A DNA stretch of 64,000 nucleotides from a virus. Both the position numbers and the translations under genes were made by a program. Location of the stretch: IMG/VR virus record IMGVR_UViG_3300044700_000345, positions 1 to 64,000 of that record. One strand, 5' to 3'. This document shows, in pieces, positions 40,182 through 63,986 of the stretch (within the stretch, counting starts at the first letter, position 1; every line of letters begins with the position of its first letter). The notes below the pieces were generated by a model. The model made no database searches and was not told where the DNA came from. It worked only from the letters and a program-made list of their open reading frames with translations.

Positions 40182-40206
40182 CGTCAAGCTGGACGTTAAA
40201 CGTAGC
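40182..40206 (+). promoter_or_regulatory. pseudoknot leader motif, divergent copy 1
   Basis: CGTC-AAGCTG-GACG-TTAAAC-G-TAGC. Confidence 0.5.
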
Positions 40207-40292
40207 AGACATAGGCTGATGGTCAGCCATGGATAACCTGCTTGGCAGCTGCAATTCAGCAGCGTAAGCCCAAGTGTTCCGAGGTAACTTCC

Positions 40293-40457
40293 ATGGCTAA
40301 GATCATCTACCCCGCCGCTTACTACGTCATCAAAGTTGATGGTGTAATCGTAAAGGTAACTGAGGATGACTCAGTTGCACTTGATTACATCGTTGACTAT
40401 CCAGGGCGTGTAACGGTGGATCCCGTAGAACAAGGTAAGTTCTACGGGGAAAGCTGA
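40293..40457 (+). CDS. hypothetical protein
   Basis: GAGG RBS; MAKIIYPAAYYVIKVDG... Confidence 0.65.
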   Translation: MAKIIYPAAYYVIKVDGVIVKVTEDDSVALDYIVDYPGRVTVDPVEQGKFYGES

Positions 40458-40549
40458 TCCGTTAAAGCGGGTTGGGAGGTGCAAACCCTCCCACAGCTAT
40501 TGCCTTCCAGGGAGATAGGCACCCTACACACAGGAGTAATCCCGTGATC

Positions 40550-40753
40550 ATGTCATCAAAGCAAGTTGGATATTTAGCTGTTGCTATCTATGTAACTGCA
40601 GTGACGGGAACTACAGCAGGGATCATGACGTTCGGTGTTGCAAAGTTAGATCAAGCAACGGCACTTCAGTGTCGTACGCATGACTGGCCTGTTAACGCAC
40701 ATATGGTTCATATGGACTGGTGTAAGGCCAATAATTACACCACCACCAAGTAA
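40550..40753 (+). CDS. small membrane protein
   Basis: AGGAG upstream; TM helix then QCRTHDWP...H..WC. Confidence 0.65.
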   Translation: MSSKQVGYLAVAIYVTAVTGTTAGIMTFGVAKLDQATALQCRTHDWPVNAHMVHMDWCKANNYTTTK

Positions 40754-40823
40754 CAAGCGTGATGCCGGGGGATCAAATCCCCCTACTTGGTATTGCCACA
40801 CACTGAGTGTGGCTAACAGAACA

Positions 40824-40976
40824 ATGCTACGCAAAGCACTTGCTGCTGCACTGATCGCTACTGCAACTGCAGTAACTAAAGATCAGACTAAAGAACGCAT
40901 TAGTGAAGTTGTTAAAGATGGCAGGCGTAAGCTTGCTATCTGGATACAGCCTAAGGACACACGTCCTATTGTCTAA
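40824..40976 (+). CDS. hypothetical protein
   Basis: MLRKALAAALIATATAV..., 50 aa. Confidence 0.55.
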   Translation: MLRKALAAALIATATAVTKDQTKERISEVVKDGRRKLAIWIQPKDTRPIV

Positions 40977-41031
40977 TGTTCCAGAGGGATGCGTCTCTGT
41001 GATAACGCATACATCCCATTGTATTCAACTC

Positions 41032-41232
41032 ATGTCAGCCATCAAGAACGCCTACGTTTGTGTTGTTAACGGTGAGCCAGAGCTATTTGAGACGCAGCAA
41101 CAAGCAGAGGATTGTGCCATGGAGCTTAGCTTTGCATGGTACGATGCAAACCTTGATGTACCTGCTCCAAGGCTGGCAGTTATGTCAGTGACTAATTGGT
41201 TGCAACTGCAATCACGATTAGCGCTTGTCTGA
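41032..41232 (+). CDS. hypothetical protein
   Basis: MSAIKNAYVCVVNGEPELFETQQQAEDC... Confidence 0.6.
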   Translation: MSAIKNAYVCVVNGEPELFETQQQAEDCAMELSFAWYDANLDVPAPRLAVMSVTNWLQLQSRLALV

Positions 41233-41321
41233 TGTTTGCACTGAGGGCTTCGGCCCTCTCTGCAGACTTCATTGTCTGCCGTGGTACATATGTACTACCT
41301 ACCAACTCTATTCAAATCAAC

Positions 41322-41579
41322 ATGGAAATCTCCTACGTTGAAGAGCTACTTACTCAGCGTGCTAGGCTGCTAGCTCGTCGAGACTCTACCAGTGCACACC
41401 CGTGCATTGACAGGGAGATCGAAGAGCTTAGGCAACAAGCACTAGAGCTATTCTTTAGGTTCCAGGATGGCATGGCTCAGTTCTCTGATCTAATGCCCAT
41501 CTGTATGGTACTAGAGAAACGAGTTAATACCAATCGCGCTTTCCTTAAATGGGAACGTGACTTTGGTATACAGGAATAA
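41322..41579 (+). CDS. hypothetical protein
   Basis: MEISYVEELLTQRARLL... Confidence 0.6.
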   Translation: MEISYVEELLTQRARLLARRDSTSAHPCIDREIEELRQQALELFFRFQDGMAQFSDLMPICMVLEKRVNTNRAFLKWERDFGIQE

Positions 41580-41582
41580 GTA

Positions 41583-41726
41583 ATGGAACACACATTATGG
41601 CGCGTGTGGTACCAAGATTCTGTCATAGAGCTTTATGCTTTTACAAAGACAGAAGCTTTGGTTAGAGGCGGAGAGCTACTCAATAGATTACCTGTTGAGT
41701 TAAGCGTAATACGCATCTACGACTAA
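41583..41726 (+). CDS. hypothetical protein (47 aa)
   Basis: MEHTLWRVWYQDSVIELYAFTKTEALVRGGEL... Confidence 0.5.
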   Translation: MEHTLWRVWYQDSVIELYAFTKTEALVRGGELLNRLPVELSVIRIYD

Positions 41727-41804
41727 TAGAAGTCTGCGCTGGGCCAGCGATGGCCCTCCGCAGAACTCACAAGGTTCTGCGCACACCCTACCAATGGAGG
41801 TTCA

Positions 41805-42110
41805 ATGCTTACCAAGGTTGTTTACAATACTTGTTATGGAGGATTCAGTATTTCACCTGAAGCCTTGACAAGGATGAAAGAGTTGGGATACACAGGTGAC
41901 GCTAGTATCTACAACAGATATGCATACTTATATGAGTGTGTTCGTCACAATCCAATCTTAGTGCAAGTTGTAGAAGAACTTGGCAAGAGGGCAAATAGCC
42001 CAGGTTCTGACCTATGTATTGCACAAGTGTTTGGTCCCTATTGTATTGAAGAATACGATGGGTCAGAAACAGTTATGGAACCAGATGATTACACTTGGAT
42101 CACACCATGA
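41805..42110 (+). CDS. conserved-looking phage hypothetical protein
   Basis: GGAGG RBS; KVVYNTCYGGFS.S...RH.PILVQVVEELG...IEEYDGSE. Confidence 0.8.
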   Translation: MLTKVVYNTCYGGFSISPEALTRMKELGYTGDASIYNRYAYLYECVRHNPILVQVVEELGKRANSPGSDLCIAQVFGPYCIEEYDGSETVMEPDDYTWITP

Positions 42111-42265
42111 AAATTCAAATGCATCCCATGGATTCATTCAAGTACTACAGCAGTAGAGTCTTGGCCTATGCCATTTTAGTTGGCATTGTAACTACGGCTT
42201 TTGCTACATTGTACAAATCAGATTCTTCTGCAATGTACAAATCAACTACCCACAAAGGTCACTAA
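42107..42265 (+). CDS. small membrane protein
   Basis: 52 aa, one TM helix, coupled on both sides. Confidence 0.5.
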   Translation: MKIQMHPMDSFKYYSSRVLAYAILVGIVTTAFATLYKSDSSAMYKSTTHKGH

Positions 42266-42501
42266 TGCAAAGTTATGTTGCACTTGTTGCCGATATGACA
42301 GGGCGTTATGCCCATGTCTACGGCACTGCTATAGACTGGCCTAGCTTCGCTGAACAACTCGAAGAGGTGGGATGTGAAGTAATTGAAAACCAGACAGAAG
42401 ACTATGAGCCTCTCGACGAGCTAACACTTGACGAGTTGCACGAGTACGATGTTGTTACCGTACAAGAACTGATTACTCACACTGACGCAGTACTAGCATG
42501 A
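42265..42501 (+). CDS. acidic hypothetical protein
   Basis: 78 aa, coupled. Confidence 0.65.
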   Translation: MQSYVALVADMTGRYAHVYGTAIDWPSFAEQLEEVGCEVIENQTEDYEPLDELTLDELHEYDVVTVQELITHTDAVLA

Positions 42502-42875
42502 CCACTCAATCCAACATTGATCTCAACACCTGTGTACGAGGGCAGAAGGTTAAGCTTCGTGATGGAAAAATTGTTACATACGAAGGAGTCATAGATGAAA
42601 ACGAAATATACACACACGCAGTAAATGGCTACAGCTATACAAGGCGCGGTACTTTTTGGATGGAAGATGATCGTATTAGTCCCAAGGATGTTGTAGAAAT
42701 TCTTCCAATGGAAGAAGAACCTGCTAAGCCAACACCAGAGCTAACACATTCAATCACTGATCAGATTGATGTGGTAAACCCAGATCATGTATCGATCATT
42801 CCTCATGAGCATGGGGTAACCATATGTATTAAGAAGGGACTGACAACTATTAGCTGGAGGCATTACAACCATTAA
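42498..42875 (+). CDS. hypothetical protein, N-terminal domain paralogous to 45412..45915
   Basis: IDLNTCVRGQKVKLRDG...DVVEILP. Confidence 0.7.
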   Translation: MTTQSNIDLNTCVRGQKVKLRDGKIVTYEGVIDENEIYTHAVNGYSYTRRGTFWMEDDRISPKDVVEILPMEEEPAKPTPELTHSITDQIDVVNPDHVSIIPHEHGVTICIKKGLTTISWRHYNH

Positions 42876-42988
42876 GTATTGGTTAGCTTACTGATCTAGC
42901 CAATACCTGCCATGTATTGGATGATATGCCAATACATGGCAACCCCCCATGCCCCCATTGTTACAGCCACTACCAAGGTGGAAGGCTG

Positions 42989-43261
42989 TTATGTAGTCAT
43001 TGCATCCATACGTGCGTTGTCTAGTTGAATCATTTGCATTGCATGTTCCAAGGGTTTGGGTTGTAGTGATCGTATGTCTTGTACAGCACTAGCCCAAAAC
43101 AATCCAAAGCCTGGTCCACCATCAACCAAATGATCTCCCATTTGATATTTATTGATAACCTTTTTGTCTAATATGTTTTCACCATGGGGATGACCTTCGC
43201 TTGGATATGCAATCATTCGTTCATTGTTTAACTTTGTAAAATACTTGCCCGCTAAATCCAT
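42989..43261 (-). CDS. hypothetical protein (MDLAGKY start)
   Basis: 90 aa, antisense within the early arm. Confidence 0.6.
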   Translation of the reverse strand: MDLAGKYFTKLNNERMIAYPSEGHPHGENILDKKVINKYQMGDHLVDGGPGFGLFWASAVQDIRSLQPKPLEHAMQMIQLDNARMDAMTT

Positions 43262-43315
43262 TGTTAATTCCTTGTGTAACTCTATGTTATTACAAGTTAT
43301 TAACTGAGTGAAGCC

Positions 43316-43344
43316 CGTCCAGAACCATGACGTTAAACTGGATC
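43316..43344 (+). promoter_or_regulatory. pseudoknot leader motif copy 2
   Basis: CGTC-CAGAACCA-T-GACG-TTAAAC-TGGATC. Confidence 0.75.
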
Positions 43345-43367
43345 ATTCCACTTATTCATTCAATCAA

Positions 43368-44264
43368 ATGAACTCAAAACAACTTAGAAAAATTGAAGAA
43401 ACGTTGCCGTATAACTGCAATACTCCAAAGAACTATGTTAAATGGGCAGTGCTTGTGACACGTATTAAGAAAGGCATTAAATATGGTTCAATAATATTAG
43501 ACCGAATTAGAAGGAACATAATAAAGCGAAAAGATGTAGACAAGTTTACTGACAAAGAGTATAGCGCAATTGCTGTAGCCCTACCTATTCTTTTTAAAGT
43601 GCCTCCTATTTGTGTACACGAAAACATATTGGATTCATTGTTGCAAACAGCAGTAAAGGAAATGGATATACCAAAACGTTCACTGCCTGGATACATTTTT
43701 CTTTTGCCGTTAAATGCAAATAAGTTTTTTGAAAATTTCAAATTTAAAAATAACATCCAACTAAATATTAATTCAATTTTTGTAGATGTTTCAAACACTA
43801 AAAATTGCGATTGGTTTCATGTTACACTTTTAACTAAAGATAAAGTTCATTATCGTTATTATTTATGGAGCAAAGCTGGTGATTACAGTCACTTTTTAAA
43901 TCCCTGCATTGAAACTGAAGTATTACTTGAACGTTTGATTAAGAATTTAATTCTTATTTATACGTATGAAACCAAGCAGATAACAGAAGAACAAGTTAAG
44001 GTGACAACACCAGGCAAAGGATTTACCAAGGACAAAGAAGGTGTTAATAAAGATATGGCATCACCTATTCGTTGGTTAGGCAAAACGTTTGTCCGCCAAC
44101 AAACCAAATACTTGTACGCTGCAAACAAATCCAAAGACAATAGTAGAACTGTTGCTTCTCATTGGAGACGCGGACATTGGCATACAGTATGTTGTGGTCC
44201 CAAACGCAAACAACGTAAACAACAATGGTTTAAACCTGTATTAATTAATACCAATACAAATTAA
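43368..44264 (+). CDS. AT-rich hypothetical protein with C-terminal HWRRGHW motif
   Basis: ATG 43368 preferred over GTG 43308, which would span the RNA motif; SHWRRGHWH...W.KP ending. Confidence 0.75.
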   Translation: MNSKQLRKIEETLPYNCNTPKNYVKWAVLVTRIKKGIKYGSIILDRIRRNIIKRKDVDKFTDKEYSAIAVALPILFKVPPICVHENILDSLLQTAVKEMDIPKRSLPGYIFLLPLNANKFFENFKFKNNIQLNINSIFVDVSNTKNCDWFHVTLLTKDKVHYRYYLWSKAGDYSHFLNPCIETEVLLERLIKNLILIYTYETKQITEEQVKVTTPGKGFTKDKEGVNKDMASPIRWLGKTFVRQQTKYLYAANKSKDNSRTVASHWRRGHWHTVCCGPKRKQRKQQWFKPVLINTNTN

Positions 44265-44269
44265 CTACA

Positions 44270-44298
44270 CGTCCAGAACCATGACGTTAAACTGGATC
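44270..44298 (+). promoter_or_regulatory. pseudoknot leader motif copy 3 (identical to copy 2)
   Basis: CGTCCAGAACCATGACGTTAAACTGGATC. Confidence 0.75.
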
Positions 44299-44325
44299 AA
44301 CCCATCCACACTCGGAGGTAACTCA

Positions 44326-44517
44326 GTGCAACAACCAGTGTCAACATTTGATCAACCACATGCTGATCATTGGGAAGAACTAGCCGACATGGCGTACTAC
44401 CAACGTATGGCCATGCAAGAAGAACTAGATGAAGATGACATTCCACTTGGCTGGCTGACAACCAAGCCATCAGGATGTCAGCAAACCAACACATCATTAC
44501 AGGAGGATTGCACTTGA
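44326..44517 (+). CDS. acidic hypothetical protein
   Basis: GGAGG RBS before GTG 44326. Confidence 0.55.
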   Translation: MQQPVSTFDQPHADHWEELADMAYYQRMAMQEELDEDDIPLGWLTTKPSGCQQTNTSLQEDCT

Positions 44518-44623
44518 CCACCAAGGTCCGATCATCTGAGGCACCCGACACTCTTATTGTGTGTATCGGTGTCATCTATTGCCTCAGCATTCTATTCATC
44601 CAACTCATTACGGAGATCGCATC

Positions 44624-44983
44624 ATGGCTCTTACAACGGAACAGCAACTCATTGGCCAAGCCCTTGGCTACGAACCACTCACCGAAGAAGAAGCAACCGG
44701 ACAATACCCTGCCGATGCCGACTTCCAAGACGCGCCGAAGGGCAGCATCCCCAGCACAGGTAACGTCTATCGTACCAAGCGAGGAGTCCTGCGTTGTTTC
44801 TGGATACCAACAGGACGTAACTACACCACTGTCGAGTCCGAAGAACTCACCGGATGGTACGATGTCCCAGACCTTGAAGACATCGAAGAGTGGACCTTCG
44901 ACTCGTGCTGCCCGACCCCGGCGGGTGACGAAGTCGAACATGACCACCCCGATAGCTGGCTGAGAATCCTCAGCTTAGTTTGA
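44624..44983 (+). CDS. hypothetical protein
   Basis: GGAG RBS; MALTTEQQLIG...DSCCPTPAGDEVEHDHPDSWL. Confidence 0.7.
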   Translation: MALTTEQQLIGQALGYEPLTEEEATGQYPADADFQDAPKGSIPSTGNVYRTKRGVLRCFWIPTGRNYTTVESEELTGWYDVPDLEDIEEWTFDSCCPTPAGDEVEHDHPDSWLRILSLV

Positions 44984-45111
44984 TTAACAAACCATTTACC
45001 TTTGAAATTTTAATACCAATATGGTATGCTTTCTAGCGTGCTTCCGAAAAGAACCACGTTCTTCTCTCTGGTCAATTCTGAAATCCATCCTGTCCCATCG
45101 CATTTGACATC

Positions 45112-45372
45112 ATGAGCAACGCACTGTCTGATTTAAGTCCCGCCCAGAAAAAAGTTTTTGATGAATGGTCAGATGCTCACAAAGCTCATATTGAAACTTA
45201 TTGTTTATGGTTTGAACTAGGGCAAGCTCTTGTTGTAGCAAATAAAACTCTTGGCATAGCTCGTTTGCATTGTGAGGAGAAGAATATTCCCGATGAATGC
45301 TATGTGGCTGTACATCAAATGGCAGTTGACATCCTGTCTGATTTAACTCCTGCCCAGCAAGAAGAATCCTGA
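45112..45372 (+). CDS. hypothetical protein with terminal repeat
   Basis: 86 aa; LSDLSPAQ at the start and LSDLTPAQ at the end. Confidence 0.65.
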   Translation: MSNALSDLSPAQKKVFDEWSDAHKAHIETYCLWFELGQALVVANKTLGIARLHCEEKNIPDECYVAVHQMAVDILSDLTPAQQEES

Positions 45373-45411
45373 TCCTCGTTTTAATTATTATTCACCACCG
45401 CATTAACAATC

Positions 45412-45915
45412 ATGACTGTTGACTTGAGCACTTGTGTACCAGGGCAAAAGATGTATCTTCGCAATGGAGATATTGCTACATATATTGGAACAGCGCCATA
45501 CTCATGTCAAATTGATGATCGTACTTACACGGTAAAAGGAGAATATTGTTTATCTGGACAAGGGCCATTTGATGTTGTAGAAATTCTCCCGCTAGAAACA
45601 ATTGAACCAACTACATCTGACAAACATCCAAGCGTTGCATGGTGGGAGTCATGCCCATGGATTACAGACAGGAAACCCACTCCTTTGGATGGCGATGTGT
45701 ATGGAAGAGTATACATAAAATCTAGCAAAAACAAAGTGCTTACATCTAATTGGAGTGAGGTTGGCGCTCATGAGAATTGGATTCATCTTTGCGGTTGGCA
45801 ACCTCCTGTACTTACTGACAAAGAGAAAGCATTGGAATTGTTAAACAAACATGAAGGTGTTTGGACACCCACACTACGTGAATGGAATGTTATCCGTAAA
45901 GGATTAACAGAGTAA
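45412..45915 (+). CDS. hypothetical protein, N-terminal domain paralogous to 42498..42875
   Basis: VDLSTCVPGQKMYLRNG...DVVEILP plus a Trp-rich C-terminal part. Confidence 0.7.
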   Translation: MTVDLSTCVPGQKMYLRNGDIATYIGTAPYSCQIDDRTYTVKGEYCLSGQGPFDVVEILPLETIEPTTSDKHPSVAWWESCPWITDRKPTPLDGDVYGRVYIKSSKNKVLTSNWSEVGAHENWIHLCGWQPPVLTDKEKALELLNKHEGVWTPTLREWNVIRKGLTE

Positions 45916-46089
45916 CTAAATGATTAACTTCATGTGTGCAAGCATTGCTTGCTTAAGTCAATACCTTGGGACTGGTTTAATTATGTACCAAGGGCAGAAT
46001 CAAATTTTGTATCAACGTGCACACCAATTGTACTATTGTGAACGGCAAGATTATGTTTATCGTTGCGACACTGATGCTGCCAAAATACG

Positions 46090-46554
46090 TTACCAATAAC
46101 GAGCCTGTGGTAAACGCATAGCATTGATCTCAGCTTGTGCAGCAGCATCACGAGGGTCAACCATTTGAGGTTGGCTTAAAAACTGTTGCATGTTTACTGG
46201 CTGAATAGACTGTGGACTGTTAAGTTTTGTATCAAACTTTAGGTTGACTTGTGGTTCAGTACTCCCACCAGGAGTAGTGTAGATACCGCCTGACAAATCA
46301 AACATGCCTTTACCTATAGATGCATTTTGATTTGCAGCATCAATGCCAAATCTAAATCCATTGTTAGCATTGCCAACAATGGAACCACGAGGATCTATTG
46401 TTACAGTCCCAGTGGGATCTTCAAAATTAAATGGTTGACTAACTGCCATGTTAACTAAAGGATTGTTGATTCGTTTATTAAATTCAGTAGATGCAACACC
46501 AATTCCTTGGTTGACACTATTAAGTAAATTTTGAAATGCTTCTGGACCTGGCAT
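46090..46554 (-). CDS. hypothetical protein
   Basis: 154 aa, preceded by the 39-bp repeat containing TGATAGACT. Confidence 0.65.
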   Translation of the reverse strand: MPGPEAFQNLLNSVNQGIGVASTEFNKRINNPLVNMAVSQPFNFEDPTGTVTIDPRGSIVGNANNGFRFGIDAANQNASIGKGMFDLSGGIYTTPGGSTEPQVNLKFDTKLNSPQSIQPVNMQQFLSQPQMVDPRDAAAQAEINAMRLPQARYW

Positions 46555-46572
46555 ACATCTAATGTTTTAAGT

Positions 46573-46611
46573 AGTCTATCACCGGGTTTTGTCAGATAAC
46601 TACTGACCAAC
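46573..46611 (-). repeat. 39-bp direct repeat copy 1 (putative extended -10 promoter)
   Basis: AGTCTATCACCGGGTT(T/C)TGTCAGATAACTACTGACCAAC; one mismatch to copy 2. Confidence 0.85.
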
Positions 46612-46613
46612 TC

Positions 46614-46907
46614 TTACCAATCTGTATTGTTTATTGGCGGCAAACGATTTAATACTTCAGCTGGAAGAGATGGAATTGGTCTTGCTGACGGATAATGTTG
46701 AGAATTAAACAAGTTTAATTTATTAATTGTGTCTTGATCGTACGCAAGATCAATCATTGCTTGGTTTTGTTGTGCTTCAGTAGATCTTGGATTGCTTAAA
46801 ATCTTTAATGATTGATCTATTCCTTCTTGCATTGTTAATACAGGAATGCTTGGTGATTGATTTAGTCCTTCTTGTATTTTACGATTGTATTTGCCGGCCA
46901 GTTCCAT
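46614..46907 (-). CDS. hypothetical protein (MELAGKY start)
   Basis: 97 aa, flanked by the 39-bp repeats. Confidence 0.65.
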   Translation of the reverse strand: MELAGKYNRKIQEGLNQSPSIPVLTMQEGIDQSLKILSNPRSTEAQQNQAMIDLAYDQDTINKLNLFNSQHYPSARPIPSLPAEVLNRLPPINNTDW

Positions 46908-46930
46908 GCTAAAGTCTTAAGGCTTTAATC

Positions 46931-46969
46931 AGTCTATCACCGGGTTCTGTCAGATAACTACTGACCAAC
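46931..46969 (-). repeat. 39-bp direct repeat copy 2
   Basis: See copy 1. Confidence 0.85.
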
Positions 46970-47040
46970 CCCCCACACCCCCGTAAAGATCTACCAGGGA
47001 AACCTTTAATCTTTATAGGACTATCCCATTGAATTGACAC

Positions 47041-47367
47041 ATGATTACTTCAAGACTATTCCTTCTCACACTAACTGTTCTAAGCTGTGTACCAGCACAA
47101 GCAAGACCAGTGGTTGCTACTGTTTATCACCAATATTATGACGGTAGACCAGCATATTGCGGTGGAATTTACAGTGATAACAAGGTGAGTGCTGCACATC
47201 CTTGGTTGCCATGCGGCACACGAGTTACTGTGCAACACAAAGGTAGGTCATTGGTTGTTCCAATCACAGATCGATGTGAGTGTGACAGCATTGACCTAAG
47301 CTATCGAGCTGCCAAGATACTGGGTGTTCCAGTGGATGGCATTGCTCGTGTACACATTCATTACTAA
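47041..47367 (+). CDS. RlpA-like double-psi beta-barrel protein with signal peptide
   Basis: ATVY...SAAHPWLPCGTRVTV...VPITDR...IDLSY.AA..LG. Confidence 0.85.
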   Translation: MITSRLFLLTLTVLSCVPAQARPVVATVYHQYYDGRPAYCGGIYSDNKVSAAHPWLPCGTRVTVQHKGRSLVVPITDRCECDSIDLSYRAAKILGVPVDGIARVHIHY

Positions 47368-47374
47368 ACACATC

Positions 47375-47668: not shown

Positions 47669-47677
47669 TATATGCAC

Positions 47678-48720: not shown

Positions 48721-48737
48721 CCACCTACTCAACTCAC

Positions 48738-56590: not shown

Positions 56591-56609
56591 GTCGCCACAA
56601 TAGTCAACA

Positions 56610-56636: not shown

Positions 56637-56671
56637 ATTAGTTTTGCTTATCATTCACTTCATTCAACACC

Positions 56672-57481
56672 ATGCAACTTCTTAAATTCTCCACAGGTAA
56701 TGCCAAGCTTGGTAAGCGTTTAATCTTTAGCTTGCCAGCAGGATACTCTTGCCCTAACGCAGGAGTATGTAAGACAATGGCTGATCGCACCACAGGTAAG
56801 ATCATGGATCTACCGCAGCAACCTATTGATCCAACTACGGACTATAGGTGCTTTGCTGCCATGGCGGAGGCTATGTATCCAAACGTACGTGATGCACGTT
56901 GGCACAACTGGGATCTGTTACGTGAGACAATGTATGGCGGTGACTATGGTAGCTACAGAGAATTACAAGGCAAGAGTTATGAACAACAGGTTGAGTTGAT
57001 TGCAGGTCTTATTGAGTTGTCACTACTGGTACAACCAGCGCTTGAAATGTGTCGTGTGCATGAGAGTGGTGACTTCTGGGCACGTGCTTACATGGAAGCA
57101 TGGGCACGTGTTGCTACCAGGTATCCAACTATAAAGTTCTATGCATATACCAAGATGCTTAATGATTGGCTGGCTATACACGAGAAGATGCCAGCAAACT
57201 TTATGTTGACCGCATCGATCGGTGGTATGCTTGACCGTATGATTCCACGCAATCCCGATGTGTTTAAGCGTGTTGCTTATGTTGTGTACACAGAAGAGGA
57301 AGCAGCAGAACTAGGGCTTGAGATTGATCATGACGACAGTCATTGCTTTGGTGACAAGCCATTTGCATTACTGGTCCATAGTCCACAACGTGCTGGTTCA
57401 GAAGCACAGGCTGCTCTTAATGCTCGGCGTAAGCAGGGTAAGTTTACTGGTTACAACAAGAACAAGAAAGTTCGTACGTAA
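56672..57481 (+). CDS. GP88-family protein
   Basis: GNAKL...FSLPAGYSCP.AG.C...CFA...RVHESGDF...FYAYTK. Confidence 0.75.
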   Translation: MQLLKFSTGNAKLGKRLIFSLPAGYSCPNAGVCKTMADRTTGKIMDLPQQPIDPTTDYRCFAAMAEAMYPNVRDARWHNWDLLRETMYGGDYGSYRELQGKSYEQQVELIAGLIELSLLVQPALEMCRVHESGDFWARAYMEAWARVATRYPTIKFYAYTKMLNDWLAIHEKMPANFMLTASIGGMLDRMIPRNPDVFKRVAYVVYTEEEAAELGLEIDHDDSHCFGDKPFALLVHSPQRAGSEAQAALNARRKQGKFTGYNKNKKVRT

Positions 57482-57563
57482 AATTGTGGCTATGTTAACA
57501 CTGTCCTAATTTTCTTACACAACTTCTAGATGTGTTAACATTAGCCAGACTTCTTTTACATCC

Positions 57564-57797
57564 ATGAGCTACATCATTGTTACACAGGAGACAGACATGC
57601 CCTACGCAGTTAGGGCTTGTTCTGACAGTAACAGTTTTAAGTTGATTCCACTAGACTCTGATGTAGCAATAAACAAGATTTATTCGCATCCGCATCGAGC
57701 GGGAGCACAACAAATCTTAACTTGGATTAATAAGAATGACCCAGCTCTCACCAGTCAAAACCTCTCAATTCAAGATGAAGCCCGATTCAGAAAATGA
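57564..57797 (+). CDS. hypothetical protein
   Basis: 77 aa. Confidence 0.65.
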   Translation: MSYIIVTQETDMPYAVRACSDSNSFKLIPLDSDVAINKIYSHPHRAGAQQILTWINKNDPALTSQNLSIQDEARFRK

Positions 57798-59601
57798 ATC
57801 TTGGCTGGTATTTGATTTGGAATCAGATGGATTGTATGACGATGTAACGGTCATCCATTGCATTGTCATACATGACATACAAACAAACCAAACACACAAG
57901 TATGGACCCACTAACATCGCTGCTGCTCTTAAGCATCTTGCTACCGCAGATGTTTTAATAGGGCAGAATATTCTGTTCTATGACATTCCAGTAATTCAAA
58001 AACTTTTCCCTGATACTGCAAAGTTTCAGGGAAGAATTATTGACACACTCATTTGTACACAACTCATTTGGCCCAAGGAGGTTCTCTATGATCTCGACAC
58101 AGAACAATATCCGGAGGTACCAAAGGGCCTCAAGGGTAGAGCCGGCCTTAAAGCGTGGGGTTACCGCCTCTCCAATTACAAGATTGAGTTCAAAGATTTT
58201 AGTGAGTACTCCGAAGAGATGCTTTTATACTGTGAGCAGGACGTTAGGGTCACTCTTCAACTTTTTCAACTCATCCAGAAACAAAACTATGCGGAGTCGG
58301 CGCTTAAGTTGGAACATGACTTTGCTCTTGCAATTAATAAGCAAGTGCGAGCAGGTTTTCCTTTTGATGTGGATGCATGTCTTGATCTGGTGGATGATCT
58401 CAGAAGAAAGAAAGATGAACTCCATGTCAAGGTGATGGAAGTATTCCCACCTATCAAACAAGAGTCAGTGTTTGTACCAAAGGTAAACAATAAAGCACGC
58501 GGGTATATTAAAGGTGAGCCATTTACCAAAGTAAGATATCAAGAATTTAATCCTGGTTCTCGCCCTCAAATTGTTAGTAGGCTCAAGGGTAAGTATGGGT
58601 GGGTACCAGAGGAGCTAACTGATAAAGGTAATCCAATTCTTGATGACGAAGTATTGAGTGCATTAGATTATCCAGAGGCTAAAGTGTTGGGTGAATATTT
58701 GACTATCAGTAAACGACTAGGACAGATTGCTGATGGTCAAAAAGCTTGGCTTAAATATGTAAACAATCAAGACTCATGTATGCATGGTGAGGTTGTAACT
58801 AATGGTTGTATTACTGGACGTTGCGCACACCGTAATCCAAACATGGGTCAGGTACCAGCATCCTATAGCCCGTATGGTAAAGAATGCAGGAGTTTGTTTC
58901 ATGCACCAGATGGCTGGGACTTATTAGGTGTAGATGCCAAGGCATTGGAGTTACGTTGTCTTGGTGGATATCTCGCCCTATGGGATGACGGTGAATATGG
59001 CAACCTTGTGACAGATGAATCAGTTGACATTCATGTATACAACCAAGAAAAGTTTGGTGTGCCTACCAGGGATATTGCCAAGCGTTTGATTTATGCAATG
59101 CTCTACGGGTGTGGTAATGAGAAAGCTGGTGGCATTGTAGATGCTGAAGAGAAAGATCCTATGCGTCTAAAAGAATTGGGACGTAATGCAATCAATGGTT
59201 TTGTAAATGGTGTGCCAGCGCTTAAACAATTGAAGAACAAGTTGGCAAGTGCTATACAAGAACGTGGATACCTGCGTGGATTAGATGGGCGTGCATTGTT
59301 TTGTAGGTCAGACTTTAGTGCATTAAATGTATTGCTCCAGGGATCAGGTGCTGCCCTCATGAAACAAGTGGTGATTAATATTCACAATAACCTTGAGGGC
59401 AAAGGGTTAGTGCATGGTCGTGACTGGATCCAGCACGCCATGATTCATGATGAGATTCAACTGTCTTGTCCCAAGAATTACACAGCCTTGGTCAAGGAGC
59501 AGGCGTTGTTAGCCTTCCCGCAAGCGCAACAATTCTTTGCATTCCAATGTGAAATAGAAGGCGATGCTAAGGTAGGCTGGTCTTGGGATCAGACTCACTA
59601 A
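57736..59601 (+). CDS. T7-like family A DNA polymerase with 3'-5' exonuclease
   Basis: ExoI FDLESDG, ExoII GQNILFYD, ExoIII YCEQD, motif A DAKALELR, motif B RDIAKRLIYAMLYG, motif C IHDE; start may be 57775. Confidence 0.95.
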   Translation: MTQLSPVKTSQFKMKPDSENESWLVFDLESDGLYDDVTVIHCIVIHDIQTNQTHKYGPTNIAAALKHLATADVLIGQNILFYDIPVIQKLFPDTAKFQGRIIDTLICTQLIWPKEVLYDLDTEQYPEVPKGLKGRAGLKAWGYRLSNYKIEFKDFSEYSEEMLLYCEQDVRVTLQLFQLIQKQNYAESALKLEHDFALAINKQVRAGFPFDVDACLDLVDDLRRKKDELHVKVMEVFPPIKQESVFVPKVNNKARGYIKGEPFTKVRYQEFNPGSRPQIVSRLKGKYGWVPEELTDKGNPILDDEVLSALDYPEAKVLGEYLTISKRLGQIADGQKAWLKYVNNQDSCMHGEVVTNGCITGRCAHRNPNMGQVPASYSPYGKECRSLFHAPDGWDLLGVDAKALELRCLGGYLALWDDGEYGNLVTDESVDIHVYNQEKFGVPTRDIAKRLIYAMLYGCGNEKAGGIVDAEEKDPMRLKELGRNAINGFVNGVPALKQLKNKLASAIQERGYLRGLDGRALFCRSDFSALNVLLQGSGAALMKQVVINIHNNLEGKGLVHGRDWIQHAMIHDEIQLSCPKNYTALVKEQALLAFPQAQQFFAFQCEIEGDAKVGWSWDQTH

Positions 59602-59603
59602 CC

Positions 59604-59885
59604 ATGGCCGACTCAATTTCACTTGAACCAGAAGAACTTCGTGACATTATTAAAGGAAACATTCCTGTCCGCAAGTGTCCTGATTGCTTAGGTGAAGGAG
59701 AAAGTTGGACACTTCACTATGTTCTTGCTAATGATCCTGATGAAGACAATGAACAGTTTAAAGATGTAAGTTCACAATTTGCTGCTGATTTTAATGAAGA
59801 TGATTTACCGCCAGAGTATTCTGACGGCGCATGTCTTTCGTATGATTGTGAAACTTGTTCCACAGTTGGTTATGTATGGAATTAA
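59604..59885 (+). CDS. acidic zinc-finger protein
   Basis: CPDC.G.G ... CETC...G. Confidence 0.65.
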   Translation: MADSISLEPEELRDIIKGNIPVRKCPDCLGEGESWTLHYVLANDPDEDNEQFKDVSSQFAADFNEDDLPPEYSDGACLSYDCETCSTVGYVWN

Positions 59886-59915
59886 TAGTCTATATCCTTT
59901 AACTAATTAAATATT

Positions 59916-59941
59916 CGTCCCAAGTAAGACGTTAAACTGCT
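59916..59941 (+). promoter_or_regulatory. pseudoknot leader motif copy 8
   Basis: CGTC-CCAAGTA-A-GACG-TTAAAC-TGCT. Confidence 0.75.
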
Positions 59942-59962
59942 CTCAACCACACTCTCGATCTC

Positions 59963-60772
59963 ATGAATTTTGTTACACTCTGCGCTCAAACTGCTGAAGC
60001 GCCACGCGAAGTTTACATCAGTGCTACCTCCACAGCAACTCGTTGCTTAGTGTTGTTGCCACCTGTTAGTAACAAAGCACCTACTGCAATTGAACTTAAT
60101 GTCTACGGCAAGAATGCTGAACGCTTTTCTCGTGTTACTAAAGGATCTCAGATCTACATCCATGGTGCAAAACTGCGGTTCGATCTGGAGACTAAAACTT
60201 ACTCTCTCCATGGAGGAATCATTGCTCAAGTTAATGATCAGTTCCCTATCCTCAACACGGTAATCCTTAGTGGACGCTGTGTTAAAGACATTGATCAGCA
60301 AGATGCACGTGCCTTCAAGACAACTACTGATGGTACTATGATTTGCAACCAGACATTAGCTGTTAACACTGGACGTAATCAGTCTGACCTGTTTAACTTC
60401 TATGCAATTAACAGTGCAGAAGACAAGGTTAAACAAGCGGAACTTCTTGTTAACTTCACACGTAAAGGTGTTGGCCTTACTATTCAAGGCCGTATTGTTA
60501 CTGACGCTTGGGTAGATAAAGATACAAAAGAACGGCGTAGTATTACCAAAATTCAATTGGCTTCTATGACGTTGGCACCTAAGGCACAGGCCGGTGCACA
60601 GGAAATTAAACCACAAACAACGGTAGCTGCATCGGATAATGTGGCTCCATTGTGGGGTGGACGCACAGCCGATGAAGGAAGTGACCCTTGGAATGTGACA
60701 TCTGGTGGTGGTCTGCCAGAATTACCTGGTCAATACGGCACTGCACCGGAGCTAAGCAATGAACCCTTCTGA
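59963..60772 (+). CDS. ssb: single-stranded DNA-binding protein with two OB-folds
   Basis: VYGKNAE....KGSQIYIHG and NTVILSGR...QAE....RKG....IQGRI....W.DK.T; tail ends in EPF. Confidence 0.8.
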   Translation: MNFVTLCAQTAEAPREVYISATSTATRCLVLLPPVSNKAPTAIELNVYGKNAERFSRVTKGSQIYIHGAKLRFDLETKTYSLHGGIIAQVNDQFPILNTVILSGRCVKDIDQQDARAFKTTTDGTMICNQTLAVNTGRNQSDLFNFYAINSAEDKVKQAELLVNFTRKGVGLTIQGRIVTDAWVDKDTKERRSITKIQLASMTLAPKAQAGAQEIKPQTTVAASDNVAPLWGGRTADEGSDPWNVTSGGGLPELPGQYGTAPELSNEPF

Positions 60773-61037
60773 AGAAGTTACAGAATTGATGCAAATGACT
60801 ATTCCTCTTGAGAATTATTGCTTTGGCTATGCAGATGAAAACAATACGGTTCAGGTTGCTACCAGGAATACTGAGCCGATTGATTTAGTTGGTGCTTTTG
60901 TTTCTTATATGAAAGCAGTAGGCTTTAGCGTTGAAGATATTGAAATTGCCTTAGCTAACCAAGCAGATCTAATGAGATCTTTTAGGTTGCCATTTCGTTG
61001 CAAAACAGAAATCAATGCTTTAGATCCTAAAGATTAA
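60759..61037 (+). CDS. hypothetical protein
   Basis: 92 aa; F..YMKAVGF. Confidence 0.6.
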   Translation: MNPSEEVTELMQMTIPLENYCFGYADENNTVQVATRNTEPIDLVGAFVSYMKAVGFSVEDIEIALANQADLMRSFRLPFRCKTEINALDPKD

Positions 61038-61043
61038 GTTGAT

Positions 61044-61071
61044 CGTCCTGAGTATGACGTAAAACTGCTCA
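61044..61071 (+). promoter_or_regulatory. pseudoknot leader motif copy 9
   Basis: CGTC-CTGAGTA-T-GACG-TAAAAC-TGCTCA. Confidence 0.8.
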
Positions 61072-61095
61072 CCAACAAACCTAATCGACCTTGAC

Positions 61096-62118
61096 ATGAC
61101 TACGAAGACTACTGCACTTGCAACACGTGGAATCAAATCATTTCAGCTTTTTCAATCTAAAGAATTTGTTTCGGGGTACCAAAACCTCGTCACCATCCAG
61201 CCCCTCAACAAGTCTAAGACAAGAGGTTGGTTCGTGCGGAAGTCAGACTTAGATACTTGCGGATGGAGCGCAACTGAAGATCAATTTGATAAAGGTTCAG
61301 TTATCTGGAACTACAAGCAGACTTTTGGTATGGCTCCCAACACTTCAATTGAAGAAGGACTCAATTTCACTGAGCCTAGAATTCAAGTGCTTCTACGTTC
61401 TCCCCTCATGGTTGAGGAAACAACTGGGATGCGTATGACCATTGGTACGTTTGACAATCCCGATGTCAAAGATCTATGGGATGCTGACAAGGCTGCCGCT
61501 GATCTTTCCAACAGCAAAGGTGAGATGTACAAACGTAAGTTCAGTGTGCGTACCAAGTATCTTGTGTATGTCCTTAACAAGGATAATGTACGTGCCCATA
61601 AGATTCCTATGGTGCTAACACTGAAGGGATTGAATGGTACTGATGCAGCTGAAAAGATCAAGCTGTATGAAAAAGAAATGTCCAAGTGTCTTAGCAAAGC
61701 ACTATCAGTTGAAGTCCCACTTTCATTCAATGAAAAGTTCTATGCAACTACCGTATTTACTCCGCTACTTGTCAACGACATGCGCGGCGCCAACAACGTT
61801 GAGATCTGTGCAATTGAATCTTTTAATATACCTGATTACAGCACAGAAGAAGCCGCCATCGAATCATTGAATCGCATGTCGATTCCTGATGAAGATCGTG
61901 AATCAACTTGGAAATTCCAAGAGTTGTTTGCTGATTACATCAATCAACATTCCAAGCAGGATGCTGACAAGCTAGGTGGTGCCTATGGAATTAAAACAGG
62001 TGTAGAAATACTTCCTGTTGCCAGGGGAACTGACCGTGCAATGTTGCAACCAGCAAGTGATGTAGAGGATGGGATGATTTCCTATGCTTCTATCACTGGA
62101 GAAGACAGCTCACTTTGA
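61096..62118 (+). CDS. DUF5895-like protein
   Basis: GWFV...L...GW...EGL....PRI.VL..SPL...YLVY.L..DN...HKIP..LTLKG pattern, recalled from cyanobacterial DUF5895. Confidence 0.55.
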   Translation: MTTKTTALATRGIKSFQLFQSKEFVSGYQNLVTIQPLNKSKTRGWFVRKSDLDTCGWSATEDQFDKGSVIWNYKQTFGMAPNTSIEEGLNFTEPRIQVLLRSPLMVEETTGMRMTIGTFDNPDVKDLWDADKAAADLSNSKGEMYKRKFSVRTKYLVYVLNKDNVRAHKIPMVLTLKGLNGTDAAEKIKLYEKEMSKCLSKALSVEVPLSFNEKFYATTVFTPLLVNDMRGANNVEICAIESFNIPDYSTEEAAIESLNRMSIPDEDRESTWKFQELFADYINQHSKQDADKLGGAYGIKTGVEILPVARGTDRAMLQPASDVEDGMISYASITGEDSSL

Positions 62119-62379
62119 TGTAACCTCTGGGTTGGTAATAGTTGTATCATCTATAACAACATTGTTAAAGATGTGTATATCTTTTACCAGCCCTCTGATT
62201 ACGCCCTGTCTTGTGGTTGCAATGGTTACCAAGAGTGTTGCAATCTCACGTAGTTCTTTGACTGATGTGGATTCTTGAATCAATCTTTTGATTTTTTCTT
62301 CCCAGAACTTATCAGTAAGAGTGGGCTCTATGTCAAACTTACTGAGGGGGACATAGGTACCAGATTCAAGCTCTTCCAT
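62110..62379 (-). CDS. small helical protein, second NblA-like candidate
   Basis: EPTLTDKFWEEKIKRLI......ELREIATLL.......QGVIRGLV; TAGACT upstream. Confidence 0.45.
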   Translation of the reverse strand: MEELESGTYVPLSKFDIEPTLTDKFWEEKIKRLIQESTSVKELREIATLLVTIATTRQGVIRGLVKDIHIFNNVVIDDTTITNPEVTSK

Positions 62380-62444
62380 GTCAGTCAGGGTTTTGTTTAG
62401 TCTACAGCCTACTCCATTTCAACTCAACCACTTAATCTGTATCA

Positions 62445-63392
62445 ATGACTACACTTTTAAATGAAACGCTCAACACTGCTCAGTCTTCAATTTATTCTCG
62501 TACTAACATATCTCGTGCTTTCCCTGGTGTTGATGACACAGGGATTAGCGACATCTCTTTACTTGACACTAATGTTGTTGTGCGTCGGGATGATAATACT
62601 ACTCAGTGTTATGATCGCGCACTAATCAAGCAAGCTTACCTTGACTACACATTCAGACTCAAAGATTTCTTTTCCTATCTCGGAGCAAACTACCGTGGCC
62701 CATCCATTTGGCACAGGAACGCCTATGTCATTTTTAAGGGGTGGAATTATGTCCATAGCTTGGGATATCTCACTGCTTCCGCTAAGCTTCAGACGACGTG
62801 GGCTGACAAATTTATTCACATCAAAGACAAGACACGCTTGGAGACGTTACTTCAATCTGACCAGACTGATCTGGGTCATCTTATTGCTCCGGACGGCTGG
62901 CGAGCTGAGTCACTACCTATTGATATGGAGTCTGAGTTTGGAGAGGAAACTAATGGCAGTGGAGTACAAACACTGGCGCCGTATTGCTCGTGTGGATCGT
63001 TTACCAGGCAGTTAAATACCTTGGCTGATTTCCAGGCTGAGATAGAGGGATACAAGCCGTGGTGCATTCACCTTACTTGGTTTAACAAGTATCGTGAGCT
63101 GCTTGCCAAGCGCACAGACGTACGTAATAGCGCACGTGGTGGAGTTAGTGAGAAATGTGTAGCGTGGTGGTACGCTCCTCCAAGTGACAGCACTAGTGAT
63201 GGACGGTTTGTATTGCTGCACACTCAGTCAGGATCCATGGCGCCGCTGACGCATTGGCGGTCGTACAAGCCACGTACTGTATTTACACAACACGATGCCT
63301 GGACTTTGTTTGACAGTATGATGGATGCGGGTTACGTCCCGTTTCCAGGTACGGCCCTTCCTCAACTAGCCTCTGCTATTAAAAAGAAATGA
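62445..63392 (+). CDS. SWIM zinc-finger-like protein
   Basis: YCSCGSF...PWCIHL. Confidence 0.65.
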   Translation: MTTLLNETLNTAQSSIYSRTNISRAFPGVDDTGISDISLLDTNVVVRRDDNTTQCYDRALIKQAYLDYTFRLKDFFSYLGANYRGPSIWHRNAYVIFKGWNYVHSLGYLTASAKLQTTWADKFIHIKDKTRLETLLQSDQTDLGHLIAPDGWRAESLPIDMESEFGEETNGSGVQTLAPYCSCGSFTRQLNTLADFQAEIEGYKPWCIHLTWFNKYRELLAKRTDVRNSARGGVSEKCVAWWYAPPSDSTSDGRFVLLHTQSGSMAPLTHWRSYKPRTVFTQHDAWTLFDSMMDAGYVPFPGTALPQLASAIKKK

Positions 63393-63610
63393 AATTCAAC
63401 ACTGGCGAATGGATTTTTCCTGTCTGGTTTGCAATGGTCTTTGCCGTTATTACGATTGGGCCAACCACTTTTATTATAAAAACAACTACCACTCAACAAG
63501 CACTTAATCAAGAGTGCAAAACTAACTACAGCTTTCTTCAAGTTGCTGTAGCAGGAGACAACCTGTCTCGCCTTTGCCAAATTAAACAACAAACCATCAC
63601 AATCAAATGA
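63389..63610 (+). CDS. small membrane protein
   Basis: TM helix plus a Cys pair; coupled. Confidence 0.65.
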   Translation: MKFNTGEWIFPVWFAMVFAVITIGPTTFIIKTTTTQQALNQECKTNYSFLQVAVAGDNLSRLCQIKQQTITIK

Positions 63611-63783
63611 CTGACTTTCTAAACTTTAAAGATTCTCAAAAACAAATTATCTGTCCTAAACACGGTACCCACAAGCACTACATCAGCAGCAGCATTAAAT
63701 ATTATGAAGGTAACTAGTGCATGTTGTGCTGGCTAAAAAGTCTTGGCCCCTCTCTTCCAACTATTGAGCAATCAGATGACTGA
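63607..63783 (+). pseudogene. small zinc-finger-like gene interrupted by in-frame TAG (63715-63717)
   Basis: MTDFL...ICPKHGTH...EGN*CMLCWLKSLGPSLP...DD; read-through restores both metal-ligand pairs and coupling to the next gene. Confidence 0.6.
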
Positions 63784-63931
63784 CACACAATTTGACCATC
63801 TCTGGGATCTGATTGATTCGCTAAGCGATCGTATTGGAGACCTTGAGACGGAAGTGCGAGGACTAAACTGCCGAGCCGATAAGGTTGAACACGAAATCAA
63901 CAGATTGGATTGGTGGATTAGCCATGACTAA
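63776..63931 (+). CDS. small coiled-coil protein
   Basis: MTDTQFDHLWDLIDSLSDRIGDLETEV... Confidence 0.55.
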   Translation: MTDTQFDHLWDLIDSLSDRIGDLETEVRGLNCRADKVEHEINRLDWWISHD

Positions 63932-63958
63932 TCAACACTTTAACAAAAAGTAAACCTA

Positions 63959-63986
63959 CGTCCTAAGCATGACGGTAAACTGCTTA
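63959..63986 (+). promoter_or_regulatory. pseudoknot leader motif copy 10
   Basis: CGTC-CTAAGCA-T-GACG-GTAAAC-TGCTTA. Confidence 0.8.

Follow-up and report, generated by a model that had tools for sequence, protein, structure and literature searches.

A short RNA element of 28 to 30 nucleotides (nt) recurs between the early and replication genes of a freshwater phage, the virus in IMG/VR record IMGVR_UViG_3300044700_000345. On comparative evidence it is an H-type RNA pseudoknot, because its two interleaved helices covary, its loop 1 is a fixed single base, and its loop 3 is A-rich. The DNA analyzed here, called the window, comprises bases 1 to 64,000 of the 80,982-bp record, which has direct terminal repeats. 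Nine canonical copies, all on the plus strand, span positions 43316 to 63986, and a tenth site at 40182 is a separate subtype. Judged by its conserved positions, the element is a Watson-Crick-extended variant of the architecture of coremin (xrRNA-C), an exoribonuclease-resistant RNA (xrRNA) of eukaryotic RNA viruses. By analogy with coremin, we tentatively favor, with somewhat less than even confidence, a function as a 5'-to-3' mechanical roadblock that stabilizes the downstream cistron.

Stem 1 of the element has 4 bp (YGUC/GACR) with an invariant C-G pair closing the loop, and loop 1 is a single C. Stem 2 consists of 5 to 7 freely varying Watson-Crick or G-U pairs that join the hairpin loop to the bases right after the spacer, one unpaired W lies between the stems, and loop 3 reads NNAAAC. 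An exact scan of IMG/VR with the 14-mer ATGACGTTAAACTG gave at least 117 loci, and nearly all of the matches listed sit in the full motif context. Ninety-six distinct copies with 6-nt stem 2 arms (6 from the window and 90 from IMG/VR) could be aligned without gaps. The three stem 2 pairs that the search pattern left free occur as GC, AU, CG, UA, and GU alternatives, and 27, 45, and 24 cells, respectively, are changed on both sides. Pairing is kept in 95.1% of all stem 2 cells, versus 18 to 52% when the partners are slid by 1 to 3 columns, and the covariation score was reached by none of 500 shuffles. The length of stem 2 across copies ranges from 4 to 9 nt.

Stem 1 appeared invariant in that alignment because the first search pattern had fixed it. 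A second IMG/VR scan, which fixed one stem 2 version and loop 3 and left stem 1 free, yielded 111 unique copies. Among these, pair 2 of stem 1 was GC in 68, CG in 22, AU in 8, UG in 8, and UA in 3 (98% paired versus 53% when shuffled), and pair 3 was UA in 49, AU in 48, CG in 11, and GC in 2 (100% versus 45%). The loop-closing pair was C-G in 110 of the 111, and the single loop 1 base was C in every one. When both stems were fixed and loop 3 was left free in a third scan (57 unique copies), AAAC was retained in 56, the two preceding bases varied freely, and additional bases were found only at the 5' side. A covarying H-type pseudoknot in gene leaders had been proposed in the sequence-only reading of the window that preceded this analysis, and it is borne out for stem 2 and, once sampled sequence-free, for stem 1 as well.

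Within the window, the nine canonical copies read YGTC-C-N6-7-W-GACR-KWAAAC and then the complement of N6-7. With at most one mismatch, the core GACGTTAAACTG has nine forward occurrences and no reverse one across all 80,982 bp of the record, and a reversed-pattern control gave 0 and 0. At up to two mismatches there are 12 occurrences in the window versus 4.83 +/- 2.2 in shuffled sequence, and 0 of 100 shuffles reached 12. A covariance model, which the sequence-only reading had called for, was built from the 96 copies and run with filters off over the window plus bases 63001 to 80982. It returned exactly the nine canonical sites at an E value of 1e-3 or better; the training set held six of them, and the three copies with 7-nt loops, which lay outside it, scored 5e-5 to 1e-3. 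Elsewhere in the genome nothing scored better than 1.8, leaving the late arm, in which the sequence-only reading had noticed no copies, and bases 64001 to 80982 without any.

Among named phages, Synechococcus phage S-EIVl is the nearest to this genome, with the family A DNA polymerase genes sharing 74% DNA identity. The left part of the window, to about 39.1 kb, holds structural and packaging genes (terminase, a virion protein, and an orphan open reading frame [ORF] of 1,031 amino acids [aa]), mostly on the minus strand. The plus-strand arm that begins at about 40 kb holds small ORFs together with PcfJ-like, GP88-like, DNA polymerase A, SSB, and DUF5895-like genes. All nine window copies and all seven copies found in S-EIVl lie on the gene strand.

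The copies at 43316 to 43345 (7-nt stem 2 arm; E value, 1.2e-4) and 44270 to 44299 (E value, 5.1e-5) have identical sequences with the same stem 2 mismatch, pair at 5 of 7 positions in stem 2, and flank a single ORF at 43368 to 44264 (298 aa; PHROG 6160, unknown function). They are not independent copies, and the arrangement looks like a recent duplication or cassette insertion. The second of them begins 5 nt past the TAA of that ORF and is followed by a GGAGG leader and a GTG start at 44326. The copy at 48693 to 48720 (E value, 3.7e-9), before an ORF of 73 aa at 48738 to 48959, is weak because stem 2 pairs at only 3 of 6 positions. After its AAAC, at 48712 to 48724, the sequence reads TGC-CGTC, a repeat of the 5' arm of stem 1; GACG could pair downstream instead, which may make this site an alternative fold or a decaying copy. 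At 49201 to 49228 (E value, 3.1e-10; 5 of 6 stem 2 positions paired), the element lies 5 nt past a TGA and before an ORF of 134 aa at 49261 to 49665. The copy at 49675 to 49704 (E value, 1.1e-3) lies 9 nt past a TAA and before the PcfJ-like ORF at 49732 to 51492; all seven stem 2 positions pair, and its stem 1 is TGTC/GACA, the compensatory change that had been claimed for it.

Further downstream, the copy at 56610 to 56637 (E value, 4.3e-10; 5 of 6 paired) precedes the GP88-like ORF at 56672 to 57481. That at 59916 to 59943 (3.4e-8; 4 of 6 paired) lies 5 nt past a TAA and before the SSB gene at 59963 to 60772, and that at 61044 to 61071 (6.8e-10; 6 of 6 paired; loop 3, TAAAAC) lies 6 nt past a TAA and before the DUF5895-like ORF at 61096 to 62118. 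The last copy, at 63959 to 63986 (1.5e-9; 6 of 6 paired; loop 3, GTAAAC), precedes a small ORF that starts at 64014, outside the window. The PcfJ-like, GP88-like, SSB, and DUF5895-like genes are those that the sequence-only reading had named as lying downstream. Its statement that stem 2 keeps pairing while its sequence changes applies to most copies, with 4 to 7 pairs each, and holds only weakly at 48693.

The site at 40182 to 40206, also on the plus strand, consists of CGTC, the 6-nt loop AAGCTG, GACG, TTAAAC, G, and TAGC, with a possible 4-bp stem 2 (GCUG with UAGC). In this arrangement (CGTC-AAGCTG-GACGTTAAAC-GTAGC) the covariance model matches only over GACGTTAAAC, at an E value of 1.8, and no ORF starts at the usual downstream distance. 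We regard it as a subtype and not as noise because at least four related contigs (L022, L067, L122, and L052) have this variant too. All ten sites that had been reported are therefore present on the plus strand, nine of them canonical and this one set apart. A candidate eleventh copy at 52890, with the degenerate sequence TAGGTTAAACTG at the end of ORF 51918 to 52892, was rejected, having no convincing stems and no match to the covariance model. An inverted repeat at 35577 to 35599 (TGTCTC-TTTCC-GAGACA, then TGAAAC) inside the minus-strand ORF 35094 to 35771 fits a loose motif regular expression on both strands and has neither a stem 2 nor a model match.

The position of the element relative to coding sequences was surveyed in 113 unique copies with sufficient flanking sequence. 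In 82 of these an ORF of at least 60 codons ends within 57 nt upstream, and 31 have no long ORF there. The spacer from stop codon to stem 1 is 5 nt in 26 of the 82 copies, 6 nt in 11, and 7 nt in 8; the rest are longer except for one of less than 5 nt, so that 81 of 82 are at least 5 nt. On the other side, an ORF starts within 100 nt downstream in 86 of 113, most often 25 to 28 nt after AAAC (41 copies), with a further peak at 34 nt (9 copies), and in 27 of 113 no ORF of at least 50 codons starts within that distance. ARAGORN was run on 25 IMG/VR copies without such an ORF behind them and found no tRNA. The window copies behave similarly, with stop-to-knot spacers of 5, 5, 5, 6, 9, 19, 27, and 42 nt and no upstream ORF for 43316. 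The sequence-only reading had placed the copies shortly before start codons and mostly without a Shine-Dalgarno (SD) sequence, and this description is accurate: an ORF starts after all nine, 17 to 34 nt past the 3' strand of stem 2, and only 44270 among the window leaders has an obvious SD (GGAGG). The first 20 nt past stem 2 contain 6% G, versus 22% in the genome.

Five nucleotides would be about the stretch covered by the ribosome entry channel with a stop codon in the A site, and about 20 nt upstream of AUG would be the edge of the 30S footprint. The knot thus appears to be packed as tightly as it can be without any ribosome entering it. Such packing is to be expected if the structure has to remain folded and lets ribosomes through poorly, and the strict minimum of 5 nt past stop codons suggests a knot through which ribosomes move only with difficulty.

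One intercistronic slot in the same arm is occupied by a tRNA-Leu (anticodon UAA) at 52915 to 53001. The degenerate TAGGTTAAACTG at 52890 lies just upstream of it, and behind it 53002 to 53020 forms a short C/A-rich leader (16 nt, ...caactc) with an ATG at 53018, as if tRNA and pseudoknot were interchangeable punctuation. Freshwater metatranscriptome contigs aligned to 44000 to 63999 are near-identical to the window, and 30 of 40 from one library are at least 99% alike. In contigs from related strains, junctions or breaks fall a few bases at most from three knot starts (48596/48691, 56606, and 59599/59916): one skips 48597 to 48690, another skips 59600 to 59915, and a further one aligns only from 56606 onward. 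These breaks suggest that knots bound exchangeable gene cassettes.

The element is present in well over 100 viral contigs and is not confined to relatives of the window phage. BLAST of one 37-nt copy against GenBank phages matched 144 records, of which ten were inspected or checked with the model; six of the named-phage loci match the covariance model at E values of 4e-11 to 4e-3, and three more match as well. S-EIVl has seven copies in its first 45 kb, syntenic with the window copies, for example before the annotated single-stranded DNA (ssDNA)-binding protein gene. The other carriers include the Autographiviridae Nostoc phage NMeng1 and Paracoccus phage ParMal1, the T4-like Synechococcus phage S-H35, the crAss-like phage cr7_1, the actinobacterial phages Arthrobacter phage Molivia and Mycobacterium phage Labelle, the Firmicute phages Lactobacillus phage phig1e and Staphylococcus phage StauST398-3 (which stands for 85 Staphylococcus records), and Vibrio phage D456, in which stem 1 is CUC/GAG. 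The groups represented thus include Autographiviridae, Kyanoviridae, Crassvirales, and siphoviruses of Staphylococcus, Lactobacillus, Arthrobacter, and Mycobacterium.

Copies in these phages mark several kinds of genes. In temperate Firmicute siphoviruses they precede scaffold and capsid genes and show the compensatory stem 1 forms CGAC/GUCG (StauST398-3) and UGAC/GUCA; StauST398-3 (L247, 2498 to 2534) and phig1e (L421, 695 to 731) each have a single late-operon copy just before the gene upstream of the major head/capsid gene. In NMeng1 (L418, 701 to 806) and Molivia (L420, 701 to 811) the knot ends 2 to 5 nt before an annotated tRNA gene. Behind the Labelle copy (L248, 2501 to 2787) there is no annotated ORF start close by, and the next feature is a tRNA-Gln about 180 nt downstream. 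Because copies adjoin or precede tRNA genes in these three phages, the element is not tied to protein-coding starts. The phage-wide regulon that the sequence-only reading had envisaged is accordingly too narrow, the element being found in unrelated phage groups. Since its carriers have unrelated gene sets and different RNA polymerases, it must either act alone or rely on a host machine that is conserved, and it cannot depend on a phage-specific protein or promoter system.

Bacterial genomes were scanned with a pattern of 15 fixed bases over 596 Gb, where by a rough estimate thousands of matches are expected and most of the 120 matches listed should be due to chance. Only the 12 of these 120 with at least four consecutive stem 2 pairs were used. 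Among the matches listed, these carriers include members of Enterococcus, Lachnospiraceae, Selenomonadaceae, Erysipelotrichaceae, and Bradymonadales; one of the 12 (L170) has a short loop and no RNase J and may itself be a chance match. A search of 5,426 complete E. coli genomes with one stem 2 variant, at the sensitivity of BLAST, found a single marginal match that lies antisense inside a coding sequence, and we read it as chance.

The published coremin motif, in an excerpt of PMC10520033, is GUCCGAAGACGUUAAACUAC. In excerpts of PMC10321173 and PMC6546385, it comprises a 4-bp hairpin (hp1) together with a conserved spacer; the 3' end of this spacer reaches the loop of the hairpin to form a pseudoknot-like contact, and hp2, a downstream hairpin, is also required for resistance to Xrn1. 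Coremin sits in 3' untranslated regions (UTRs) (PMC10520033). It brings Xrn1 to a halt one base short of the hairpin, stalls ribosomes that are scanning, and favors -1 frameshifting (PMC10520033, PMC10321173). Mutants described in an excerpt of PMC6546385 require the closing C-G pair, and the inner pairs can be restored by compensation. Y stands at the first loop position, U13 and U14 can be replaced, UU may be inserted after G12 and only there, and A16, A17, C18, and U19 are essential. The loop lp1 has the consensus YGAD (4 nt) or YGNNAD (6 nt) in excerpts of PMC10520033 and PMC6546385, and xrRNA-WCC is described, in part of PMC10321173, as a canonical pseudoknot version of coremin.

The phage element and this plant-virus Xrn1-resistant motif have in common the core NGUC-C...GACN-NNAAAC-U, and 16 of 20 coremin positions equal the commonest phage form. 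At the position of hp1, for which 3 to 4 bp are expected, all nine window copies have YGUC/GACR, and in the wider samples described above the closing pair is C-G in 110 of 111 and the inner pairs covary. In the spacer, AAAC is retained in 56 of 57 copies and is followed by T in all nine window copies, the first two loop 3 bases vary, and insertions occur only at the 5' side. The positions free to vary in phages therefore match the published mutational rules of coremin. The loop contact is present in phages as a full canonical helix of 5 to 7 bp with strong covariation, whereas coremin makes 2 to 4 mostly noncanonical contacts. Other features differ outright. The phage loop is 8 to 9 nt long (C-N6-7-W), and its second base in the window is U, C, or A and not G. 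The phage element has no downstream hairpin like hp2: the 30 nt past stem 2 have a mean minimum free energy (MFE) of -1.2 versus -3.2 kcal/mol for background, and an MFE of -3 or lower occurs in 1 of 9 window copies versus 46% of background, and in 24% of 112 IMG/VR copies. The long stem 2 might replace hp2, which is a guess on our part. The setting differs as well, in that the phage element is present in multiple copies between the cistrons of DNA-phage mRNAs, whereas coremin lies in the 3' UTRs of beny-, cucumo-, and other eukaryotic RNA viruses, whose hosts have other nucleases, bacteria being without Xrn1. Because the loop consensus, stem 2, and hp2 differ, we do not file the phage element as a member of coremin.

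Other known RNAs resemble it less closely. The leader pseudoknot of T4 and T2 gene 32 mRNA is present in a single copy and serves autoregulation by gp32. It too is of the H type and lies in the leader of a phage mRNA, ahead of a gene for an ssDNA-binding protein, but the present element is multicopy, lies before many kinds of genes and tRNAs, and occurs in phages without related SSBs. The 5' mRNA stabilizers of Gram-positive bacteria and their phages are 5'-terminal structures or bound ribosomes that impede RNase J1. They provide segmental stabilization downstream of a 5' obstacle, as proposed here, but consist of simple hairpins or SD-like ribosome-binding sites and form no conserved pseudoknot family. 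The xrRNAs of flaviviruses and of dianthoviruses and poleroviruses would share the proposed job, a protein-free mechanical block to 5'-to-3' exonucleases; they are larger folds that form a ring around the 5' end, as an excerpt of PMC10520033 describes them, and no sequence resemblance to the phage element was noted. A flaviviral xrRNA halts purified bacterial RNase J1 in vitro, according to an excerpt of PMC5760640.

Searches of Rfam 15 and of the open-access literature gave no earlier description of the element. At the gathering threshold, Rfam 15 matched only tRNAs in the window; at an E value of 10 or less over 48600 to 49800, which holds three copies, it gave no relevant match, including to preQ1-I, pistol, and small pseudoknots, and at 1 or less it gave nothing at the S. 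aureus phage or mycobacteriophage copies. The search of Rfam and of related phages that the sequence-only reading had suggested thus returned no family and many phages that carry the element. We found no report in the open-access literature of a coremin-type fold in phages or of an exoribonuclease-resistant fold in natural bacterial RNA decay, no open-access paper that combines H-type pseudoknots, phage genomes, and intergenic position, and no natural phage xrRNA in the titles or abstract openings of the open-access papers listed on xrRNAs and bacteriophages. Among the open-access papers listed, RNase J appears together with exoribonuclease-resistant RNA only in work on eukaryotic-virus xrRNAs and other eukaryotic RNAs.

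Of the three mechanisms put forward by the sequence-only reading (a protein-binding operator, an SD-independent translation enhancer, and a nuclease-blocking 5' structure), the last is the best supported, because the core of the element equals the coremin Xrn1-resistant motif. This roadblock is also our preferred reading because the element resembles coremin, in which the conserved positions serve protein-free stalling of a 5'-to-3' exonuclease. As we picture it, the knot would be transcribed within polycistronic early/replication messages, and a 5'-to-3' machine arriving from upstream would halt at its 5' edge, the block being compact and direction dependent. The machine stopped in this way might be RNase J in its exonuclease mode, RNase E that tracks 5' ends, or a ribosome after termination. 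What lies behind the knot, namely the leader (unstructured, poor in G, and without an SD) and its cistron, would thereby persist as a stable segment open to translation, and the knot, lying at least 5 nt past the stop and about 20 nt before the next start, would remain folded through both termination and initiation.

To our knowledge, bacteria lack Xrn1, and many of them have RNase J. Among the matches listed, RNase J (TIGR00649, above its cutoff) is present in 11 of the 12 stem 2-paired carrier genomes versus 20 of 50 chance-match genomes (Fisher P = 0.0013), and at an E value of 1e-50 or less in 11 of 12 versus 29 of 50 (P = 0.026); at this second threshold Synechococcus elongatus matched and E. 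coli did not, as controls. The copies before scaffold/major-head genes and tRNAs in other phages are supportive of a roadblock, as are the lack of a real copy of the one stem 2 variant in the 5,426 E. coli genomes and the in vitro block of RNase J1 by a flaviviral xrRNA. Several observations weigh on the other side. The RNase J association is confounded by phylogeny, with mostly Firmicutes among only 12 carriers in the matches listed. The element occurs in crAss-like and Vibrio phages, and a Bacteroides thetaiotaomicron control genome had no RNase J match at 1e-50 or less, so RNase J cannot be the sole target; the target may be broader and include 5'-end-tracking RNase E or post-termination ribosomes. 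The loop consensus differs from that of coremin, and the missing hp2, with the weak downstream structure described above, weighs against a simple transfer of coremin function. A role in translation would account equally well for the regular spacing to the start codon, and all four RNA libraries consist of assembled contigs that show no starts, ends, or strand, which makes RNA 5' ends unreadable in them.

The translational role would be that of an initiation device, in which the knot docks on the 30S platform or insulates the leader and ribosomes load on the leader independently of the upstream cistron. Besides the start spacing (41 of 86 at 25 to 28 nt after AAAC and 9 at 34 nt), it could account for window leaders of 17 to 34 nt that contain 6% G and, in all but one case, no obvious SD, and coremin itself acts mechanically on ribosomes, blocking scanning and promoting frameshifting in the excerpts of PMC10520033 and PMC10321173. 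We nevertheless consider it unlikely, given the knots that adjoin a tRNA in NMeng1 and Molivia, the Labelle copy without a close annotated ORF start, the 27 of 113 copies behind which no ORF of 50 codons or more begins in the first 100 nt, and the ordinary SD sites behind some copies (44270 and ParMal1). The element might also belong to the 3' end of the upstream cistron, either protecting it against 3'-to-5' exonucleases or serving as a processing signal interchangeable with tRNAs. The coupling to the upstream stop is tight, with a modal spacer of exactly 5 nt; an RNase P cut at the tRNA directly behind the knot in two named phages would leave the knot 3' terminal; the tRNA-Leu of the window occupies an equivalent slot with the same kind of leader behind it; and coremin is located in 3' UTRs (part of PMC10520033). 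This explanation is improbable in our view, since 31 of 113 copies, 43316 for example, have no long ORF ending within 57 nt upstream, and the activities of the related fold reported in excerpts of PMC10520033, PMC10321173, and PMC6546385 are directed only against 5'-to-3' machines.

The element might instead be an operator through which an RNA-binding protein acts in trans to coregulate the marked genes; this protein could be the phage SSB, by analogy with T4 gene 32, or a host protein that is conserved. Sequence conservation of the closing pair, loop 1, and AAAC beside a free stem 2 is what a recognition surface would leave, and one copy precedes ssb in both the window phage and S-EIVl. However, the conserved positions are those that coremin needs for protein-free Xrn1 stalling (excerpt of PMC6546385), and the carriers (T7-like, T4-like, and crAss-like phages and Firmicute and actinobacterial siphoviruses) have unrelated gene sets, which makes a phage-encoded partner unlikely. 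The analogy to T4 gene 32 and SSB drawn in the sequence-only reading finds no support here, and we give an operator little credence. Least probable by far is that the element serves as a DNA promoter, from which an RNA polymerase that is phage encoded or modified would initiate at TAAACT or immediately past it. The element is a compact, conserved gene-strand sequence in short intergenic gaps, TAAACT resembles a -10 element, and the copy at 49675 fits TTGACT-17-TAAACT; yet this sigma-70-like pattern is found at only one of the eight copies within the 39000 to 58999 region scanned (49675), and promoter-like sites there number 33 versus 42.9 in shuffled sequence, that is, fewer. Interleaved compensatory helices, a stem 2 of 4 to 9 nt, and loop 3 insertions would be meaningless for a promoter, and the carriers use different polymerases. 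No match to T7-type RNA polymerase (PF00940) or sigma-70 region 2 (PF04542) was found in the genome, a weak negative for PF00940, whose control matched nowhere. The 1,031-aa ORF at 36028 to 39123 on the minus strand, at the head of the leftward arm, is a possible cryptic polymerase; it belongs to no Pfam or PHROG family, and its best protein-atlas score, 0.78, is to unnamed viral clusters. With variable spacing and two covarying helices, we rejected a promoter as the main explanation.

The roadblock reading, if correct, has consequences beyond this phage. The exoribonuclease-resistant RNAs known to us come from eukaryotic RNA viruses. It is possible, although we would not yet count on it, that DNA phages of many bacterial phyla carry a true exoribonuclease- and translocase-resistant RNA built on the coremin fold of plant and fungal RNA viruses, which would punctuate operon transcripts into separately stable messages. 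Such an RNA would be the first xrRNA to occur naturally in the prokaryotic world and would mean that one minimal RNA roadblock is effective against both Xrn1-type and RNase J-type enzymes. To this question the window adds a carrier genome, unbiased samples of stem 1 and loop 3, the RNase J and E. coli comparisons, and the test for hp2. The three-dimensional structure of coremin would be easier to solve with the help of hundreds of natural phage variants in which stem 2 is fully Watson-Crick. A block of RNase J or RNase E by the knot, if it occurs, would explain the different levels of neighboring genes in long, SD-poor phage operons and would provide a portable 30-nt mRNA stabilizer for cyanobacteria and Gram-positive bacteria.

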